Shown here piece by piece: positions 211 to 9,964 of a stretch of 32,000 bases of DNA. Position numbers and translations under genes: made by a program. Source of the stretch: Candidatus Saccharimonadota bacterium. GTDB lineage: Bacteria; Patescibacteriota; Saccharimonadia; Saccharimonadales; Saccharimonadaceae. How positions within the stretch are numbered: position 1 is the first letter of the stretch; each line of letters starts with the position of its first letter. Where the stretch lies: the NCBI GenBank assembly GCA_025349965.1, contig CP075337.1:180001-212000 (forward strand), read 5' to 3'. The notes under the pieces are model-generated. The model worked only from the letters and a program-made list of their open reading frames with translations. It was not told the DNA's origin and searched no databases.

Positions 211-714
211 TTAGCTTGCCTGTCCGGCCATGTTTGCACAACTTGAGCCTGGAGTACCAACACTAATGGTCGTAAGACCTGCATTTGGAGATTTGTCGTA
301 CTGCCAGTAGCTAATTATTACGCCACCAGTTGAAGCGTCGTCAGAAGCTGCTGTTGAAGATTTTCCGCAAGCCTGAAGGTTAATGCGCTTTGTCCCGTTG
401 TCCTTAGTAACAACAGTCGCTGGAACGCCTGTTATTGTTGAGCTGTTGTCAATGTAGTAAGCCTTTGATGTATCAGTACCAAAGCTTGCGATTGCATATG
501 GGTAGCTACCAGTTTCAGCTTGGAAAAGCTCAATCTTCTTCTTCCATGTATTCGCAAGTGAAAGTGACGCTGAAGCGTTAGCCCTGTTTGTAATACCGTT
601 GTAAGAAACAATCGTGATCGCAGCAAGGATAGCGATAACGACAACAACGATGAGAAGTTCTACGATAGTGAAACCGCGCTTCGCTGTATTTAGTTTGATG
701 TCTGCAAGACTCAT
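211..714 (-). CDS. type IV pilin-like protein (probable major pilin)
   Basis: 167-aa ORF. The class III signal is KRG|FTIVELLIVVVVIAILAAITIV, with Glu at +5 and a hydrophobic helix. It has its own promoter-like element, a GGGGG Shine-Dalgarno (SD) sequence and a terminator. Confidence 0.85.
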   Translation of the reverse strand: MSLADIKLNTAKRGFTIVELLIVVVVIAILAAITIVSYNGITNRANASASLSLANTWKKKIELFQAETGSYPYAIASFGTDTSKAYYIDNSSTITGVPATVVTKDNGTKRINLQACGKSSTAASDDASTGGVIISYWQYDKSPNAGLTTISVGTPGSSCANMAGQAS

Positions 715-754
715 AGTAGAGTTGCCCCCTATTTGTTACTAATTATATGTCTAT

Positions 755-783
755 ATTCTAGCGTTCTTTTGTCTTAAGCACAA
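755..783 (-). promoter_or_regulatory. sigma70-like promoter for the major pilin gene
   Basis: The minus strand reads TTGTGC-17 nt-TAGAAT. The -35 is the complement of 778-783 and the -10 is the complement of 755-760. Confidence 0.45.
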
Positions 784-813
784 GCTTTTTACTCTAAGAT
801 TGAAATGTTCCTA

Positions 814-2883
814 CTATGACTCGGGTATAAAGGAGATGCCGTCGAGAGAGACCCAGGTGTTCGATGCGCCGTGCGCGGTAATTTGGCCGTCTGCCCATAC
901 GTCAAGTCGGCTATGTGCGCCCGCTGCAGGTGTCTGCATAAGGAGGCGTTCGGCTGGACGGTACCCAGGGGGAAGTGTAGCAATGGCGGCGCCAAGTGTG
1001 CCAGAGGCAACGAGACCTTTTAGGTGGACAACGCCGTCACTTGTCTTTGTGTACTGTGGCGTAGTAAACCCTGAGCCGCTATAGTTTGCCCAGCCATTTG
1101 AGAGGGGAAGGTTTATCCAGCCCGAATAAGACCCGGGAAGGTAAGCTACGTTAATAGAGTAAGCACCCGTTCCATCCCCCTTGGCAAGAAGGCCCTGAGT
1201 GGCATCAATGCCAAGATGGTGGAAGGTTCCTGAGCGTGATGGGAAGTGCATGTATTGAGAAGGTCGTGACGCTGCAGGGATGCTGAAGATTACAGTGCCA
1301 TTTGTTCGCGTTCCATTGGCGAGAAGCCCTTGTATGACAACTCGTCCAGCACTATCTTTCACATATGATGCAGGCGCCCAAGCCCCACCGTAGTTAGTGA
1401 AGCCATTTAGTAGTGTCGGTGTCGTTCTTGTATATGGCGCTGACTTTGCCGTGTAGCGAATGGAGTCGAGTGAATACCAGGCCGTATTACCGCCATCCAT
1501 GAAGACAATTTTTCCATCCTCCCAGAGGTCGACGCGTGAACTTGCATTTGAGTTAGTGGTATTTCCAAAGAAAAGTCTTCCGGTTGGTTGGTATTTTGCT
1601 GGAAGTTGGGCGATGGTGCTGCCTTGTGCAGCTGCCGATGCTTTTATCATCCCTTTGATAACTACGAACCCAGCAGAAGTCATCGAATACATAGCTGGAG
1701 AATAATTAGAAGAGTAGCGCGTCCAAGTGCCTTCTAGCGGTAGTGGTGACCAGAGTGGTATGCGTGTATCCTTTGTTGCATATGTTGAAGATCCTGTATT
1801 ATTTCGTGCAATTACACGGACCGACACAGTATCATTATTAATTGCTTCAGTAAGCTTGTAGGATGTGGCTGTAAGATTTGTGGCTGCTGATTGCCATGCA
1901 CCGCCATTAAGGCGATAATCCACGTCGTATACAGAGGCGTAGGATGCGCTTTGCCACGATATATCGACATCACTTCCATCAACGACTGCCATCGTAATAG
2001 ATGCTGGGGTAAAGGGACGGGGCTCGGATGTAACGGAGTTAAGTCGAGTTGCCCTCCGCTCCGTTGACTTGACGGTTTCACGTCCAGCAATATTTTTGCG
2101 CGCAGTAAGTGAGACTTGTACCGAACTTACATTTTGAAGTGCGGTGTCGCGTGCTGCGTCCGTGCCTGTTTTTGCTGCATTATTAGGGGAGACTGCGTTT
2201 GCGGAATTGTAGTAGGTGAAATTGAAGTCATTTTCCGATATACCGTCCAGAAGCTTGGTGTCGCTCGCCGCGCAGAAGGTATGCGTTGTTGCGGGTGCGC
2301 AGGTTGGGCGCTGGAAGAAAGTAGTGCCACCGCAGTACGTGAGAGGGTTGTTGTAGAAGTTCGGAACTACTACACGTCGCCATAGCGCATTTCCTGCTAC
2401 AAAATAGACGACATTTGTGTATAAAGGCGTGTTGAGTCTGTAATTCCCGGAACACGAATTGGGCTGATTGTTGAGGTAAAGGATCTGGGCGCCTGCGCCG
2501 CCAGCTGCTTGACGAAGGGGGTCTGCAGTGTAAGCAAATTGCTTAAGAATGAGCGCCTGTGGAGTGGCGTTGGATATATTCGTGAAATCTGTCGTGCTTC
2601 CTGTAGATGAGGGTGTGTCGGGATTGGCATTATACCCCTGAGGATTAGTGCTTGAGAATGCGATATCATTTTTTGCCAAAAATCGAGCACTGAGTCGCAC
2701 GTCTTCATCGATGCGATCAATAGCGTCCTGTACGTTATACTGTAGTACGCTTGCCTCTCTTGACTCAAGTGTACTGCCTGTGAGCGTTATGACAAGTGCG
2801 ATAAAGGCACCGATAGAAAGAATGATGATTGGCGCTACAACAAGCACTTCAACGAGGGTAAAGCCGCGCTGTAATCCACGCAT
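814..2883 (-). CDS. large minor-pilin-like protein with a C-terminal FN3 domain and a triple repeat module (pilus adhesin candidate)
   Basis: The ORF is open back to 2916. The ATG at 2883 (MRGLQRG|FTLVEVL, Glu +5) has a GGAGG 8-9 nt upstream and sits 1 nt after the stop of the upstream gene, so I prefer it. That gives 689 aa. Confidence 0.8.
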   Translation of the reverse strand: MRGLQRGFTLVEVLVVAPIIILSIGAFIALVITLTGSTLESREASVLQYNVQDAIDRIDEDVRLSARFLAKNDIAFSSTNPQGYNANPDTPSSTGSTTDFTNISNATPQALILKQFAYTADPLRQAAGGAGAQILYLNNQPNSCSGNYRLNTPLYTNVVYFVAGNALWRRVVVPNFYNNPLTYCGGTTFFQRPTCAPATTHTFCAASDTKLLDGISENDFNFTYYNSANAVSPNNAAKTGTDAARDTALQNVSSVQVSLTARKNIAGRETVKSTERRATRLNSVTSEPRPFTPASITMAVVDGSDVDISWQSASYASVYDVDYRLNGGAWQSAATNLTATSYKLTEAINNDTVSVRVIARNNTGSSTYATKDTRIPLWSPLPLEGTWTRYSSNYSPAMYSMTSAGFVVIKGMIKASAAAQGSTIAQLPAKYQPTGRLFFGNTTNSNASSRVDLWEDGKIVFMDGGNTAWYSLDSIRYTAKSAPYTRTTPTLLNGFTNYGGAWAPASYVKDSAGRVVIQGLLANGTRTNGTVIFSIPAASRPSQYMHFPSRSGTFHHLGIDATQGLLAKGDGTGAYSINVAYLPGSYSGWINLPLSNGWANYSGSGFTTPQYTKTSDGVVHLKGLVASGTLGAAIATLPPGYRPAERLLMQTPAAGAHSRLDVWADGQITAHGASNTWVSLDGISFIPES
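817..1752 (-). repeat. three tandem ~100-aa protein repeats inside the pilin-adhesin gene
   Basis: Units at 1429-1752, 1120-1428 and 817-1119 share the pattern L.L.NG(W/F).NY.......Y.K...G.V...G........G..I..(L/I)P...RP.........R(L/V)D.W.DG.I.....W.SLD.I. An FN3-like segment lies just upstream at 1753-2007. Confidence 0.6.
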
Positions 2884-2884
2884 C

Positions 2885-3283
2885 TTAAAGGCCCTCCGGT
2901 GATACATACGTGGCATGTGTTACTGTCTTCTGCGGTGAGCCATAGCGAATACTTGCGGTGATACGGTTGAGGTTAGGAAGTGACATATTTGGGCAGTCTC
3001 TTGTGACAGTTATCATTCCATCGCCAATGCCGTTGCCGAGATTTATCGATGGCTGATAGAAGAGCGTCGCAGGGGTGCACGGCGCAACCGCGCTGGTTGT
3101 GTAGCTTCTGACTCTAGAATACGCCATCGAGCCCACCTCCGCTTCCATTCGTGTGTTGCCACTCTCTGTAATGATTGCTATGTACAGTTGGTATCCAGTT
3201 GCAAGCGCCATGGCGGCAATAAAGAGTGTAATAAGGAGTTCGATAGCGGTAAAGCCTGGGTGAGTGGAATTATTGCGCATCAT
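2885..3283 (-). CDS. prepilin-type N-terminal cleavage/methylation domain protein (minor pilin-like)
   Basis: 132 aa with the signal THPG|FTAIELLITLFIAAMALA (Glu +5). Its start shares a 4-nt ATGA overlap with the upstream gene's stop. Confidence 0.8.
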   Translation of the reverse strand: MMRNNSTHPGFTAIELLITLFIAAMALATGYQLYIAIITESGNTRMEAEVGSMAYSRVRSYTTSAVAPCTPATLFYQPSINLGNGIGDGMITVTRDCPNMSLPNLNRITASIRYGSPQKTVTHATYVSPEGL

Positions 3284-3819
3284 TGATTTTTACTCGTTAC
3301 CATTTGAATAGAATCGTCTTTCTCAAGCCGATAATAAAGATTGAACTTCACACAGGTTGCGAGGAATGGGTCGATACAAACAGCTCCGGTTTTAGTGAGC
3401 GCTTGGTATACGTATGTCTTTGTGGTGGGTTGTGGCTGGACTCCGGTGGGTGTTTGCACGGCATTGGTAGCTTTTATAATGCTCGGTGGTTGATCGACGG
3501 ATACGCCAGGTGCCCGGAATATTTTTGGATCAGCTTCAGGTGTAATAATAGTGAGGCCTGAATTATCTAGGTATTCCACGCCAGGATACGAGCCGCCACT
3601 CATGAAGTACTGGTCGCCCCACATGGTAGAGCTACCGCTCATGGGGTTCTTGTAGTAACCCTCAAACTGTATTGCAATCGCCTCGATATCAGCTTTTCTT
3701 TCGGCGTCACGGGCGTTCACCTGACTTGCGTTCATACTGACAACAGCAAGCGCTAAAAGAATTCCAAGGATTGTAATTGTAATAACTATTTCAATAATAG
3801 AAAATCCACCACGCCGCAT
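3280..3819 (-). CDS. prepilin-type N-terminal cleavage/methylation domain protein (minor pilin-like)
   Basis: 179 aa with the signal MRRGG|FSIIEIVITITILGILLALAVV (Glu +5). It is the first gene of a three-gene pilin block. Confidence 0.8.
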   Translation of the reverse strand: MRRGGFSIIEIVITITILGILLALAVVSMNASQVNARDAERKADIEAIAIQFEGYYKNPMSGSSTMWGDQYFMSGGSYPGVEYLDNSGLTIITPEADPKIFRAPGVSVDQPPSIIKATNAVQTPTGVQPQPTTKTYVYQALTKTGAVCIDPFLATCVKFNLYYRLEKDDSIQMVTSKNQ

Positions 3820-3872: not shown

Positions 3873-4898
3873 CTAGGCGGTGATTTCGAGCGGTTCTTGC
3901 TCGATAATGACTTGGAATGTGTCACGTACTTTGCTGATAATCTCTTCGCGTGCCGCGGCAAGATCTTGATAGCCAGTCGCCGCTTCATTCACAAGCACGA
4001 GTGCATTTTTCTCGTAGACACGGATACCGTGAGAGACACTGCCTTTAAGACCTGCCTTCTCTATGAGCCACCCACTCGGCACCTTCATGCGCCCATCAGC
4101 CATCTCAAACATTTTAATGTCTGGGAAGTTTTGCCTTAATTCATTAGCGCGCCATGCGTCGATAATACTGTTTTTGAAGAAAGAGCCACTATTTGCAATA
4201 ACAGTAGGGTCGGGGAGCTTTTCGGCGCGAATTGTTTTTACTGCATCGCGAATTGTTTGCTGTGTGTAGAATGAGATATTGTTTGCATCAAGATATGATT
4301 GAAGCGTGTCATAGAACGGTGGAGCGGGAAGTGATTTGGAAAGCTGAAGTGTTATGCTCGTGATGATATAGCGTCCCTGCTGGTCACCTCTGAAAATACT
4401 GTGCCGATATGAAAAGTTGCAGTCCTCATTTTGCAGAACAGCAAACGCATCGTTTTGGGTGTCGTAGGCTTCAAGTGAAATGAGCGTCTCAGCAATTTCC
4501 TGCCCGTAGGCGCCTACATTTTGTACGGGTGCAGCCCCTGCTGTGCCAGGAATGGCGGACATAGCTTCAATTCCTGAAAGATTCATACTTACAGTGCGTT
4601 CGACGACACTATCCCATATTTCCCCCGCCCCAACCTTAATAGTCGTTGTGTTAAGGTCATCTGCAATAACTTCAAACCCAAGGATGCGCATACGAATAAC
4701 AAGCCCATCGAAGCCCTCGTCTCGTGCAAGCAGATTGCTTCCACCGCCCAGAATGAAGACAGGAAGTTGCTGTTGTTTCGCATTGCGGTAAAGAGCTTGT
4801 GCCTCTGCTGGGGAATGGGCATCAGCAAAAAATCGGGCTGGGCCACCGAGGCGCATCGTAGTAAAGTTTTTTAGGGGAATGTTTGTTCTGATATCCAT
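3873..4898 (-). CDS. murB: UDP-N-acetylenolpyruvoylglucosamine reductase
   Basis: 341 aa. The N-terminus PLKNFTTMRLGGPARFF and the GGGSNLL motif are typical of the MurB FAD-binding domain. Confidence 0.9.
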   Translation of the reverse strand: MDIRTNIPLKNFTTMRLGGPARFFADAHSPAEAQALYRNAKQQQLPVFILGGGSNLLARDEGFDGLVIRMRILGFEVIADDLNTTTIKVGAGEIWDSVVERTVSMNLSGIEAMSAIPGTAGAAPVQNVGAYGQEIAETLISLEAYDTQNDAFAVLQNEDCNFSYRHSIFRGDQQGRYIITSITLQLSKSLPAPPFYDTLQSYLDANNISFYTQQTIRDAVKTIRAEKLPDPTVIANSGSFFKNSIIDAWRANELRQNFPDIKMFEMADGRMKVPSGWLIEKAGLKGSVSHGIRVYEKNALVLVNEAATGYQDLAAAREEIISKVRDTFQVIIEQEPLEITA

Positions 4899-4973: not shown

Positions 4974-5050
4974 GCACCTGTAGCTCAGTGGATTAGAGCA
5001 TCTGTCTTCGGAACAGAGGGTCGTAGGTTCGAATCCTACCGGGTGTACCA
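4974..5050 (+). tRNA. tRNA-Arg (anticodon TCG), CCA encoded
   Basis: Hand-folded cloverleaf. Acceptor gcacctg/cgggtgt, D arm gctc..gagc, anticodon stem tctgt/acaga with loop ctTCGga, T arm gtagg-ttcgaat-cctac, discriminator a, then cca. Total 77 nt. Confidence 0.85.
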
Positions 5051-5091: not shown

Positions 5092-5168
5092 GGGACAGTA
5101 GCTCAGTTGGTTAGAGCGTCTGCCTCTTAAGCAGAATGTCGTGGGTTCAAATCCCACCTGTCCCTCCA
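5092..5168 (+). tRNA. tRNA-Lys (anticodon CTT), CCA encoded
   Basis: Hand-folded cloverleaf. Acceptor gggacag/ctgtccc, anticodon stem tctgc/gcaga with loop ctCTTaa, T arm gtggg-ttcaaat-cccac. Total 77 nt. Confidence 0.85.
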
Positions 5169-5175
5169 AGAAATC

Positions 5176-5212
5176 CCGCCGTTTCCACTTCTGGTGAACG
5201 GCGGCTTTTCTT
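5176..5212 (+). terminator. rho-independent terminator after the tRNA pair
   Basis: CCGCCGTT-13 nt loop-AACGGCGG, followed by cTTTTcTT. Confidence 0.6.
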
Positions 5213-5284
5213 GTAATGAGCCTTTAAAGAATGGTGCTTATGGCCTATAGTCAATGGTAAATAGGTGAGGGCGAGGGTATACAG

Positions 5285-6778
5285 ATGAGCATTTTTCTGA
5301 ACAAAAATAAGCAGCGTGGAAGAGGATTTACTCTTGTTGAACTTCTTATCGTTGTTGTTGTGATTGCGATTTTGGCAGCAATCATAGTAGTTGGATATAG
5401 GGGAGTGGTAGGCTCGGCTCGCGAAGCCTCTCTGCGGTCTGATCTTAAAAATGCAATTTCAGAATTATCGCAGTATAATCTCGCGAATCGTACCTATCCA
5501 GCGGACGGTTCTTCGCTTAAGTCGAGCAATGGAAATGTCTTTACGTACCAGAGTGATGGCTCAACCTATTGTCTTGCCGCCTACTCTGAATCGAATCCAG
5601 GCATGGTTTTCCGTGTCACTCAAGAGGAGAAGATTGAAAGCGGAAAGTGTGGTGCGGTAACTACAGTCATTGCGACAGGTAATCTGGCTACCTGCTCTGT
5701 CGCTTCGGCTAAGGCATATTGTTGGGGGCATGCTATGTGGGGCAAGCTTGGTACTATCTCGGGTGCAGATTCGAAAATCCCCGTAGCTGTCGATACTACT
5801 GGGGTGTTGGCCGGTAAGGAGGTCACGGCTATTGCTATAGGCCCTAATCATAGTTGTGCTATCGCTACCGGAAAGGTGTATTGTTGGGGCAAGAATCTAA
5901 GTGGACAACTTGGCGACACTACGACAACTCAGCGAATGACACCAGTTGCCGTTGATACAGCTGGTGCACTGGCGGGGAAGACTGCAACTGCCGTTACGGT
6001 AGGTGAAGATTATACCTGCACCCTTGCTTCGGGCGCGGTATATTGTTGGGGCAAGAATCAGTATGGGCAACTCGGCAATAATTCAACAGTTGCTGATGCA
6101 AAAGTTCCAGTCGCCGTTGATACCACTGGAGTACTCTCAGGAAAAACAGTAACAGCGATTGGCGGAGGATCATACCGAACTTGCGCCATTGCATCAGGCA
6201 AGGCATATTGCTGGGGCTGGAATGAGTATGGCGCCCTCGGGAATGGCTCGACAGTCGCTAGTTCAAATATCCCGGTCGCTGCTGATATTCCAGGAAAAAC
6301 AGTTACGGCGATTACGGCGGGGACGTGGCACACTTGCGCCATTGCCTCTGGGCAGGCATATTGCTGGGGGTCTGCTGGCTCTGGACGACTTGGTAATGGC
6401 GACTCGATGGCAAGTTCCAGTACGCCAGTTCCTGTCAGCACTGCTGGAGCGCTTGCTGGAAAGACAGTTACGGCGATTTCTTCGGGCAGTAATCATACTT
6501 GCGCCATTGCCTCTGGGCAGGCATATTGCTGGGGGTCTGCTAGCTCCGGACAGCTTGGTAACAATTCGACAATTGACTCTGATGTTCCGGTTGCTGTCAG
6601 TGTGGGAGGTGTATTGGCGGGTAAATCGGTCACAGCTATTGCGGGTGGAAGCTCTCATTCCTGTGCTATAGCTACCGGAAAGGTGTACTGCTGGGGTCTC
6701 AATAATTACGGAGGGCTAGGCAACGATTCCACGGCAAGTTCACCTATTCCAGTGCAGGCTGTCGATTACCCCTTGTAA
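5285..6778 (+). CDS. type IV pilin N-terminus fused to a seven-blade RCC1-like beta-propeller
   Basis: 497 aa. The signal is RGRG|FTLVELLIVVVVIAILAAIIVV (Glu +5). Seven repeats of (A/V)YCWG.....G.LG(N/D) follow, each next to a ...P(V/I)(A/P)V... segment. A GAGGG SD sits 9 nt upstream, and a strong terminator lies downstream. Confidence 0.85.
   Translation: MSIFLNKNKQRGRGFTLVELLIVVVVIAILAAIIVVGYRGVVGSAREASLRSDLKNAISELSQYNLANRTYPADGSSLKSSNGNVFTYQSDGSTYCLAAYSESNPGMVFRVTQEEKIESGKCGAVTTVIATGNLATCSVASAKAYCWGHAMWGKLGTISGADSKIPVAVDTTGVLAGKEVTAIAIGPNHSCAIATGKVYCWGKNLSGQLGDTTTTQRMTPVAVDTAGALAGKTATAVTVGEDYTCTLASGAVYCWGKNQYGQLGNNSTVADAKVPVAVDTTGVLSGKTVTAIGGGSYRTCAIASGKAYCWGWNEYGALGNGSTVASSNIPVAADIPGKTVTAITAGTWHTCAIASGQAYCWGSAGSGRLGNGDSMASSSTPVPVSTAGALAGKTVTAISSGSNHTCAIASGQAYCWGSASSGQLGNNSTIDSDVPVAVSVGGVLAGKSVTAIAGGSSHSCAIATGKVYCWGLNNYGGLGNDSTASSPIPVQAVDYPL
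5654..6775 (+). repeat. seven RCC1-type blade repeats (about 50-55 aa each)
   Basis: YCWG motifs recur seven times. Blades 5 and 6 share an identical 45-nt stretch (6332-6376 = 6497-6541). Blades 2 and 7 share tgtgctat.gctaccggaaaggtgta.tg.tgggg. Confidence 0.7.
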
Positions 6779-6786
6779 ATCGTTGT

Positions 6787-6828
6787 AGTCAATTAAAACA
6801 CCGCCCTTGAGCGGTGTTTTAATTGACT
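6787..6828. terminator. bidirectional terminator between convergent genes
   Basis: AGTCAATTAAAACACCGC-ccttga-GCGGTGTTTTAATTGACT: a perfect 18-bp stem whose A/T runs lie within the stem on both sides. Confidence 0.75.
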
Positions 6829-6840
6829 GTGATAGTTTTG

Positions 6841-7407
6841 CTACGCCTGTGAGTTGTTTTGAGGGGTTGGTGCTTCGTCGAGTGAAACTGTTGAGCTTTC
6901 TGGCTGCGCAGCTCCTTGTGGCGTATTTAGATCAAGTGAGGGGGCATTTGGCGCTGCGGATTCATCCCATGTTGACTTATCAACTGCAAGCCAAATAAAC
7001 CATACGATTGGGAAGAAAATTGCCCAGAGAAGGAATGCGCCGCTCTTGCCAAGTTTGAGGCCGATATTATACTGAGCGATGTAAAGCATTACCGCAGAGA
7101 CGATATTTACAATAGGAATGATTGCAAGTACGGCCCAGAATCCTGGCTGACCGCCAATTTCAAGCATCTTCCATGTATTTGCAAATGGTACCCATGCCAT
7201 CCAGCCCGGGGCGCCAGCTTTTTTGAAGATTTTCATAAGACAAATAGAGCTAACGATATATGATGCCAGAGCCATTGTCAGGACGAAAAATCCAAAGAAA
7301 AGTCCTACTGTTGCCTCGGTGCTTAACGAGTCACTACTGGTTGCTGTTGGTCCGTAAAGATCCATTGTCTCTGCTGTTGCCTGTGCGGTATATGTAAATA
7401 TATTCAT
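6841..7407 (-). CDS. multi-pass membrane protein, DUF5684-like
   Basis: 188 aa. The core MKIFKKAGAPGWMAWVPFANTWKMLEIGGQPGFWAVLAIIPIVNIV resembles the conserved KAG.PGW..(I/V)P..N block of the DUF5684 family, from memory. The C-terminal tail is low-complexity. Confidence 0.65.
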   Translation of the reverse strand: MNIFTYTAQATAETMDLYGPTATSSDSLSTEATVGLFFGFFVLTMALASYIVSSICLMKIFKKAGAPGWMAWVPFANTWKMLEIGGQPGFWAVLAIIPIVNIVSAVMLYIAQYNIGLKLGKSGAFLLWAIFFPIVWFIWLAVDKSTWDESAAPNAPSLDLNTPQGAAQPESSTVSLDEAPTPQNNSQA

Positions 7408-8731: not shown

Positions 8732-9964
8732 ATGTCTATAGCTGAACAGTATCCTACGGGCAATCTTGAAGATTCGTCCCACTCGGCACGCGAGCCGGAA
8801 AAAACCTCCACAAGAGAGTATGAACTTCATCATGTCGAAACCCACGATCCGTATATATCGGACGAAGTTACTTTTCGTCGCATTAATGATCAGCTCGAAA
8901 TCCTTGCGAACATGGGGCTCTACGGCGATTCTTCAATCGACATTGCTCGTAAGCGAAAGAAGATAGATAGAGAGAACCCTGCTACCGCAGCACTCATTAC
9001 TGAGCTCCCTTCTTTTAGCGATTGGCTTGATTTGGTGCCAACTGCAGCAGCACTCGACTCACTGTATGACCCACATAAGGCGACACTCGCCGACGGTAAG
9101 CCGCTTGACCCAAAACTTTCGGAATGGTTTTGCAATATTGTTGATGGTAGGGGTATTCGTAGCCGAGCGGAAGTTGTACGTGGAATTATGATGACAGAAA
9201 CGGCAGCCTTGGATAATCGAGCACAGTGGCTTAGCTTGGCGTCTGGTGCTGCTCAGCCAGTAATTAAGACCGCAAAGCTATTAACTGAGCAAGGCACTCT
9301 TACCCCAGCCGTGACACTCGTAGATGTCGATGCGAACTCGCTTAAATTAGCCAGGCAGTATGCCGACGAAGCTGGTATTGGTGACCATCTAAAGACGCGA
9401 AGAATGAACATTTTACAGCCTCGCGGAATTGATCGGGACGAGAGGTCTTATGACACGCTTGAATCAACAGGTGGTCGCCTGAGCGCAGCCGCTCTTTCAA
9501 TCCGAGGTCTCATGGGCATGGTGCGTGATGGCAATAAGCTACCAAGAAATTTTTACGATACAGTTGAGGTTGTGGGGTTGACCGAGTATCTTCTTGAGGG
9601 AAATTGGGGAAAAACAAAAGCTGAGAGGCAAAGGGGCAAAAACACACCCGAGCTTGAAGATGAAAAATATGTCTACGATCAAGTGATTGAAGAGAAAGAT
9701 AAGCCGTTTGCCGGCGCGCGAGATTTTCTGCAGAATGCATACAGGCTTGTGAAGCCGGGGGGATCGCTCATTGTCGGGAATATGCTTGATACACATCCGC
9801 AACTTGGATTCACGCTGAATGTTATTCAGTGGCCACACATTCAGCCGCGTTCGATTGATGAAATGATGGGTATTTTTGACAGGGCGGAGCTTGATGGTAA
9901 GACGGATGTTTACACGACACCGGATGGAGCGTATGCTATCTATAGGATAACAAAAGGGAGATAG
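8732..9964 (+). CDS. class I SAM-dependent methyltransferase-like protein with an N-terminal extension
   Basis: 410 aa. Rossmann-type blocks are WLSLASGAAQP (degenerate motif I), VTLVDVDANSLKLA (acidic end of beta2) and LVKPGGSLIVGN. The stop TAG at 9962-9964 abuts the kinase ATG at 9965. The function is inferred from motifs only. Confidence 0.55.
   Translation: MSIAEQYPTGNLEDSSHSAREPEKTSTREYELHHVETHDPYISDEVTFRRINDQLEILANMGLYGDSSIDIARKRKKIDRENPATAALITELPSFSDWLDLVPTAAALDSLYDPHKATLADGKPLDPKLSEWFCNIVDGRGIRSRAEVVRGIMMTETAALDNRAQWLSLASGAAQPVIKTAKLLTEQGTLTPAVTLVDVDANSLKLARQYADEAGIGDHLKTRRMNILQPRGIDRDERSYDTLESTGGRLSAAALSIRGLMGMVRDGNKLPRNFYDTVEVVGLTEYLLEGNWGKTKAERQRGKNTPELEDEKYVYDQVIEEKDKPFAGARDFLQNAYRLVKPGGSLIVGNMLDTHPQLGFTLNVIQWPHIQPRSIDEMMGIFDRAELDGKTDVYTTPDGAYAIYRITKGR

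Follow-up and report, generated by a model that had tools for sequence, protein, structure and literature searches.

A modular type IV pilin with a predicted seven-blade RCC1-like propeller in a Saccharibacteria genome, a relative of the PilX2 propeller and probable pilus-displayed host adhesin

Saccharibacteria depend on finding and holding on to a specific host bacterium and, to our knowledge, no attachment devices other than type IV pili (T4P) with lectin-like minor pilins have yet been shown for these organisms. We analysed a 32,000-nucleotide stretch of the genome of a Candidatus Saccharimonadota bacterium (GenBank assembly GCA_025349965.1, contig CP075337.1, positions 180,001 to 212,000 of the forward strand; hereafter the window) and, within it, a gene at 5285-6778 that encodes a type IV pilin fused to an RCC1-like propeller, here called the pilin::RCC1 gene. 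A seven-blade beta-propeller is shown on the type IV pilus for adhesion by the PilY1/PilC tip adhesins of Pseudomonas and Neisseria. PilY1, however, is not a pilin but docks on a minor-pilin tip complex, whereas the pilin::RCC1 protein is itself a pilin, and Pfam finds no match to the PilY1-type propeller family (IPR008707) in it.

The closest described system is PilX2 of the saccharibacterium Nanosynbacter lyticus TM7x, a T4P-2 minor pilin whose RCC1 propeller is heptabladed (Grossman et al., ISME J 2025, PMC12206443; bioRxiv 2024). When pilX2 was deleted, host binding fell to 4.6%, compared with about 10.6% with the gene intact, and competitive fitness was abolished; in binding the host, PilX2 acts in concert with PilA2 and PilB2 (PMC12206443). 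In recombinant form, the PilX2 propeller attaches to host cells, to peptidoglycan and to polysaccharide fractions of the cell wall (bioRxiv 10.64898/2026.10.06.756255). More generally, Raynaud et al. 2021 (PMC8179133) defined “modular pilins”, of which they count 264 architectures in InterPro; their Dataset S1 holds several combinations of IPR012902 with IPR000408/PF13540 (RCC1), and modular pilins with peptidase modules exist as well. In Streptococcus sanguinis, PilB and PilC of a monoderm-type T4P likewise consist of an IPR012902 pilin module and a grafted functional module (PMC8179133; Shahin et al. 2023, PMC9934059), and ligand binding from the filament is predicted for them as for the pilin::RCC1 protein. 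Their modules are, however, vWA and ConA-like lectin domains rather than a propeller, and their genes lie in the pil locus; unlike S. sanguinis, moreover, the 0.78-Mb genome studied here reuses the same type of carrier for several different modules.

An earlier note on this DNA, made from the letters alone, had taken the fusion for a pilin class not yet characterised. This cannot be upheld, as Dataset S1 of Raynaud et al. 2021 already contains N_methyl plus RCC1 and PilX2 has been studied experimentally. The note had also considered that the architecture might prove widespread and already have a function unrelated to pili; it is widespread indeed, RCC1 repeats being present in 85 of the 121 genomes of the family that were searched, yet the function assigned is a pilus function. 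The architecture is thus already catalogued, and the particulars of this new member are a canonical Glu5 scaffold, an orphan monocistron beside a “T4P locus three” that has no pilX2, and a large set of modular pilins with similar pilin modules.

The pilin::RCC1 gene and the parts of its product are as follows.

5285-6778, plus strand: coding sequence of the modular type IV pilin (open reading frame (ORF) with ATG start, 497 amino acids (aa) plus stop)
5285-5326, plus strand: class III (prepilin) leader peptide, aa 1-14, with Gly-1 as its last residue (invariant residues in homologues; predicted local distance difference test (pLDDT) below 50 over aa 1-14)
5327-5650, plus strand: pilin module, aa 15-122, about 108 aa (AlphaFold2 secondary structure, Cys positions)
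5651-6775, plus strand: predicted seven-blade RCC1-like beta-propeller, aa 123-497, 375 residues (AlphaFold2, Foldseek, Cys columns)

The N-terminus reads MSIFLNKNKQRGRG/FTLVELLIVVVVIAILAAIIVV, where the slash marks the predicted cleavage site, with Gly-1, Phe+1 and Glu+5. It has all the marks of a class III signal, namely a short basic leader running to Gly (RGRG/FTLVELLIVVVVIAILAAIIVV), Phe+1 with Glu+5, and about 20 hydrophobic residues. Pfam N_methyl (prokaryotic N-terminal methylation motif) matches aa 13-34 with 30.3 bits (cut-off 21.2, E 2.8e-7) and NCBIfam IV_pilin_GFxxxE (TIGR02532) scores 26.8 bits against a cut-off of 16.3, which bears out the prepilin signal with Glu+5 that the earlier note had read. 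The NCBIfam models for GspG, PilA, ComGC and similar proteins gave sub-threshold matches only, covering the N-terminus alone; the major pseudopilin GspG of the type II secretion system, in particular, was rejected as an identity (TIGR01710, 39.3 bits against a cut-off of 88.85, residues 13-79 only). The leader contains no phase-variation tract of the (CT)n type.

Behind the pilin module, Pfam matches RCC1 in seven stretches (E 1.6e-67), RCC1_2 in six stretches and WD40_RLD with an E-value of 2.5e-93. N_methyl together with RCC1/WD40_RLD makes the protein a modular pilin sensu Raynaud et al. 2021, and the fusion of a pilin head of roughly 100 residues to seven RCC1 blades, as originally proposed, is confirmed and goes well past what chance would produce. 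The (A/V)YCWG repeat occurs seven times, starting at aa 144, 198, 252, 307, 358, 413 and 467. In full, the motif is YCWG-x4-G-x-LG; the seven copies claimed before are therefore real, whereas the claimed spacing of five residues after YCWG gave no match (it is four) and the claimed N/D ending fails in the first copy, whose last residue is T.

The structure was modelled with AlphaFold2 from an alignment with 18 full-length metagenome homologues of about 500 aa, which are 40-52% identical to the query apart from one at 97%. The model has a mean pLDDT of 88.9 and a predicted TM-score (pTM) of 0.78. In the pilin module it predicts a 52-residue alpha1 helix (aa 17-68) and a four-stranded sheet (aa 84-90, 95-101, 104-112 and 117-119), with the Cys96/Cys122 pair placed within or right after the sheet. 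This is the type IV pilin fold, a long alpha1 packed on a sheet of about four strands, often with a C-terminal disulfide. The propeller is predicted with 28 strands, i.e. seven times four, and closes as expected of an RLD propeller with seven repeats. In a Foldseek search against the PDB its top match is plant UVR8 (E 5e-35, target TM-score 0.92, root-mean-square deviation 1.8 Å over about 380 columns), followed by RPGR, HERC2, RCC2 and RCC1. The model thus gives good support to a classical “lollipop” pilin that bears a closed RCC1 fold of seven blades, and the propeller closure for which the earlier note had suggested an AlphaFold model is what such a model predicts. Gly, Ala, Ser and Thr make up 47% of the mature protein, which reaches the upper end of what has been reported for exposed pilins.

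Residues on which processing and fold would depend are conserved. In the alignment of 18 homologues, Gly-1 (Gly14), Phe+1 (Phe15), Thr+2 (Thr16), Val+4 (Val18) and Glu+5 (Glu19) are invariant, and so are, in the propeller, two Cys per blade (C-x8-C, ...TCAIA...YCWG..., 14 Cys in all), the Trp-Gly of YCWG in every blade and several Gly/Pro positions. Since the invariant C-x8-C pattern spans a hairpin, one cross-strand disulfide per blade probably stabilises the propeller. The close full-length homologues come from metagenome-assembled genomes of Candidatus Microsaccharimonas, Saccharimonas and Saccharibacteria. Candidatus Nanosynbacter belongs to the same family, which places the genome in the Nanosynbacteraceae (Saccharibacteria). 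When contigs were searched with the pilin N-terminal pattern alone, mostly unrelated pilins from Planctomycetota and similar groups were retrieved; full-length pilin::RCC1 loci were only three (L034-L036), all from Saccharibacteria. An orthologue in a sister strain (locus L118, on a 408-kb ENA contig) lies in the same gene order, and its product is 97.4% identical. Because the two genes differ by 39 synonymous and 13 non-synonymous codons, at this identity and with no indels, their comparison indicates purifying selection on the pilin::RCC1 gene.

The position of the gene is a different matter. The idea that the family shares one conserved locus of orthologues was considered and rejected, since murB, the DUF5684 gene and folD are not found beside the homologues in L034, L035, L114 and L116. 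In distant relatives, pilin::RCC1 genes are placed among unrelated housekeeping genes, and the locus position is kept only in the near-identical strain. Orphan placement is the rule for pilin::RCC1 genes, and position is not conserved.

With PilX2, the pilin::RCC1 protein has in common the bacterial family, a hydrophobic pilin-type N-terminus and a seven-blade RCC1 propeller. Seven RCC1 repeats are present in the PilX2 of Nanosynbacter, and the two propellers are 32-36% identical (E 5e-49 and 1e-53) and agree in their Cys pairs (TCA...YCWG). Both genes stand at or beside a murB-...-pilA2-glyA locus, and a role in host attachment is expected for both. They nevertheless differ in several respects. 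PilX2 (582-593 aa) is encoded within the operon, between pilW2 and pilA2, while the pilin::RCC1 gene is a separate, divergently placed monocistron. The N-terminus of PilX2 is non-canonical (NG/YSLVLIVL, without Glu5 and without an N_methyl match), in contrast to the canonical Glu5 prepilin signal of the pilin::RCC1 protein. Finally, PilX2 has a PilX-type domain of about 150 aa ahead of its propeller, where the pilin::RCC1 protein has a small head resembling a major pilin. As judged from sequence comparison, the pilin::RCC1 protein joins a propeller related to that of PilX2 to another pilin scaffold, a canonical one.

To locate pilX2 in Nanosynbacter, we used the published knockout primer (Grossman et al., supplement). 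Among 61 Nanosynbacter genomes, 10 contain its sequence, either unaltered or with a single mismatch. The primer site lies directly 3' of the stop codon of a gene for 582-593 aa in the order murB-pilZ2-pilV2-pilW2-pilX2-pilA2-glyA (loci L130 and L131), which agrees with the published TM7x_02975-02995. The N-domain of PilX2 (aa 1-165) matches G000:C1:483343-483765 (G000:C1 denotes the single contig of the genome studied here), within a giant RCC1 ORF. Orthology of the pilin::RCC1 gene to pilX2 was ruled out by its position outside the operon, by its canonical Glu5 and by this match of the PilX2 N-domain to the giant ORF instead.

The giant ORF itself (G000:C1:479806-483796, minus strand) has a PilX-type N-terminus without Glu5 (RG/FALPTVLIA) and about 20 RCC1 blades. 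Its N-domain is 30-41% identical to those of Nanosynbacter PilX2 and of a 739-aa RCC1 plus ricin protein of Nanosynbacter sp. BB002; by this likeness it is the PilX2-type homologue of the present genome. The BB002 protein (locus L125, 6875-9094) was itself rejected as a candidate for PilX2, being the product of an orphan gene beside the atp operon. It has a prepilin-like N-terminus without Glu5 (TG/FTLPTVL) and RCC1 repeats interrupted by a ricin-type beta-trefoil lectin domain, and its cluster at 90% identity counts 352 members. It is a second, distinct type of propeller pilin in oral Nanosynbacter.

The genome, a single contig of 780,698 bp with 47.7% G+C, encodes what a pilin would need. 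The earlier note had held that absence of a prepilin peptidase would speak against processing; a PilD ORF is present at G000:C1:711422-712309 (A24_N_bact, 76.8 bits), with a borderline Peptidase_A24 score (28.2 bits by genome scan, 25.9 by hmmscan, cut-off 26.5). Assembly genes comprise three PilB-type ATPases, one PilT and two PilC. They are grouped in two clusters, a full machinery at about 709-716.5 kb and another at about 125-133 kb, which together mirror the two systems of N. lyticus TM7x. A motif scan followed by inspection yielded at least 25 prepilin-type ORFs, at least 10 of which encode modular pilins, with modules of the RCC1 (two), NHL propeller, FISUMP (Fib_succ_major; three, two recognised by Pfam and the third by sequence signature), CBM_4_9, FGE-sulfatase-like and BspA-type LRR kinds, and with a 700-aa PilW2-like protein among them. 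The pilin module of the pilin::RCC1 protein is 29-52% identical to those of the eight other modular pilins compared.

One paralog, of 520 aa (G000:C1:366796-368358), shares the N_methyl plus RCC1 design but differs in its pilin module (36% identical, helix 17/30), its propeller (42% identical) and its genomic position. Another (G000:C1:427103-428491), also at a different position, has a comparable pilin module but an NHL propeller. The closest relative of the pilin module, at 52%, is that of a FISUMP-type modular pilin (G000:C1:748601-749686, minus strand), the one whose module was recognised by sequence signature; it has Ala at -1 (MKRA/FTIVELL).

Which filament would take up the protein can be approached through its alpha1 helix. 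Of the first 30 mature residues, which pack in the core of the filament, 21 are identical to those of the PilA2-like major pilin of the syntenic operon, which is encoded 4.6 kb from the pilin::RCC1 gene, against 10 for the pilin of the second machinery locus and 4 for the PilA1-like pilin beside PilT/PilD. The same FTIVELLIV(V/I)VVIAILAA helix recurs in about 17 of the orphan pilins encoded in the genome. Because the N-terminus of alpha1 matches the PilA2-like and not the PilA1-like pilin, the protein would most likely be a low-abundance subunit of the PilA2-type filament (“thin”, T4P-2-like, host-binding).

Altogether, we consider it probable, with fairly high confidence, that the pilin::RCC1 protein of this Saccharibacteria (Nanosynbacteraceae) episymbiont is a modular type IV pilin, processed by PilD and displayed on a pilus as a host adhesin; display of the propeller on the pilus, as the earlier note had proposed, is thus retained as the best reading. 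In the mechanism we propose, the prepilin would be inserted into the membrane, and the PilD homologue would cut the 14-residue leader after Gly14 and presumably methylate Phe+1. The hydrophobic alpha1 helix with its Glu5 would then let the subunit enter a type IV pilus, at the tip or in the shaft, so that the 375-residue propeller is held away from the cell. There it may bind a component of the host cell wall, such as a polysaccharide or peptidoglycan, and thereby contribute to host attachment or host range.

Several points weigh against this proposal. A propeller of about 40 kDa on a Glu5 subunit is sterically awkward within a filament, and tip subunits often have no Glu5, as is the case for PilX2. 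Similarity of the helix is an indirect guide to the filament, the same helix being present in about 17 other orphan pilins. The ligand of PilX2 is itself undefined (bioRxiv 10.64898/2026.10.06.756255), and an identity of 33% does not transfer specificity. Furthermore, the T4P-2 filament of TM7x is thin, with a width of only about 1.8 nm (PMC12206443).

The bulk of the module relative to a thin filament is also what speaks for a membrane-anchored surface lectin, in which the pilin-type N-terminus would serve as signal and anchor, or form a short pseudopilus stub, and the propeller would sit at the cell surface with no long pilus. About 17 orphan pilin genes of one helix type exceed the obvious needs of a filament, and the N-terminus has the weak, below-cut-off likeness to GspG described above. 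We regard this alternative as unlikely, though it is the foremost of those considered: Glu5, Gly-1 and Phe+1, invariant in the 18 homologues, matter for processing and filament packing rather than for simple anchoring, a full pilin head with a predicted disulfide is kept, and the related PilX2 binds the host in cooperation with PilA2 and PilB2. Less probable still is that the propeller is not adhesive and acts instead as a pilus-delivered inhibitor, an enzyme-like module or a sensor. BLIP-II, a secreted RCC1-like propeller that inhibits beta-lactamase, is the precedent here. It does appear among the RCC1-like Foldseek matches (3qi0 and 1jtd, E about 1e-14), and modular pilins with a peptidase module are on record; yet its match (query TM-score 0.40) is much weaker than those of the UVR8, RPGR and HERC2 RLDs, and the Pfam and NCBIfam scans of the protein matched no catalytic family. 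The sister modules encoded in the genome (CBM_4_9, FISUMP, LRR, NHL), moreover, are mainly binding-type domains, and PilX2 binds cell walls.

A decaying or silent paralog without current function, finally, we hold to be the most improbable of all. In favour of it, the genome has two other RCC1 pilus-type genes, and the position of the present one is not conserved among more distant relatives. Its frame is nonetheless intact, with its own promoter-like site, Shine-Dalgarno sequence and terminators, the structural residues are all conserved, and the excess of synonymous over non-synonymous differences (39 against 13) comes with synteny kept in the sister strain. The pilus-displayed adhesin therefore remains our preferred explanation.

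Transcription of the gene appears to be delimited by the following elements.

4974-5050: tRNA-Arg, upstream of the pilin::RCC1 gene
5092-5168: tRNA-Lys, upstream of the pilin::RCC1 gene
5169-5211, plus strand: hairpin and U-run after tRNA-Lys (RNA fold, dG -22 kcal/mol, z -4.71)
5223-5251, plus strand: promoter-like site TTTAAA-17-TATAGT (consensus scan with 9 of 12 matches; a pattern match only)
5263-5277, plus strand: Shine-Dalgarno region AGGTGAGGGCGAGGG (read from the sequence)
6787-6804 and 6811-6828, both strands: 18-bp perfect inverted repeat, a GC core between A and T tracts
6841-7407, minus strand: convergent DUF5684 gene

None of 200 shuffles of the hairpin at 5169-5211 folds equally well, and the hairpin is likely the terminator of the tRNA unit and the upstream limit of the transcription unit of the gene. 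The promoter-like site lies 34 nucleotides 5' of the ATG. Within the Shine-Dalgarno region, GAGGG occupies 5273-5277, and 7 nucleotides separate its end from the ATG. The repeat at 6787-6828 folds with a dG of -29.3 on the plus and -28.6 on the minus strand (z -7.3 and -9.2) and is likely a bidirectional terminator that also serves the convergent DUF5684 gene. The boundaries described in the earlier note (its own Shine-Dalgarno sequence, the tRNA terminator and the 18-bp bidirectional repeat) are thus borne out, the repeat at exactly the position given there, and the hairpins fold strongly. Its statement that the gene stands alone is right for transcription but not for the neighbourhood, in which a four-gene pilin operon lies on the opposite strand, 1.4 kb away, beyond murB and the two tRNAs.

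This operon and murB read as follows.

211-3819, minus strand: four-gene pilin operon (N_methyl matches; BLAST against Nanosynbacter locus three; glyA and murB as flanks)
211-714, minus strand: PilA2-like major pilin, 167 aa (38% to PilA2)
814-2916, minus strand: PilW2-like 700-aa protein (first 282 residues against PilW2, 26%, E 4e-17)
2885-3283, minus strand: pilin-type gene
3280-3819, minus strand: pilin-type gene
3873-4898: murB (58% identical)

With glyA just ahead of the window (76% identity), the operon at 211-3819 is, in gene content and flanks, syntenic with the “T4P locus three” of TM7x. It is without pilX2, and there is no RCC1 gene at 211-3819. Beyond its PilW2-like part, the 700-aa protein has about 420 extra residues, with an FN3-like segment and three repeats of about 100 aa, in which Pfam finds no match. 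It fills the combined positions of pilW2 and pilX2, as if another binding module had replaced the RCC1 adhesin.

With the pilin::RCC1 gene, the RCC1 propeller adhesins gain a form built on a canonical pilin. Together with its neighbours, the gene shows plasticity in the adhesin slot of the conserved locus three: here the operon has no PilX2, its PilW2 carries additional domains, and the genes for RCC1 propellers lie outside it. Knowing of this plasticity helps when host range is to be predicted from genomes or targets are to be selected in the cultivated strain. The current picture of how Saccharibacteria pili work is left unchanged. A more speculative scheme, which we think has a small chance of being right, is that the RCC1 module moved from the Glu5-less tip pilin PilX2 to a Glu5 scaffold resembling a major pilin, with a helix that matches PilA2. 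Together with the approximately 17 orphan pilins, about 8 of them modular, it would then belong to a set of interchangeable subunits along, or capping, one thin filament and acting as a combinatorial determinant of host range, with the hypervariable PilA2-like major pilin (63% identity between strains) evolving in step.

The PilA2-like protein of 211-714 is only 62.9% identical to its counterpart in the sister strain, with 23 synonymous and 55 non-synonymous codon differences and 7 gap columns, while the genes flanking it are 98-100% identical. This looks like diversifying selection on the major pilin of the thin pilus, or replacement of its allele. Between the same near-identical strains (comparison with L118), about 10% of codons differ in 5285-6778 and in a gene for a 410-aa methyltransferase-like protein at 8732-9964. 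In most other neighbours the difference is 0-3%; in a response-regulator gene it is 9%, all synonymous, and the PilA2-like gene is hypervariable. The mosaic of codon divergence between the strains suggests recombination tracts.

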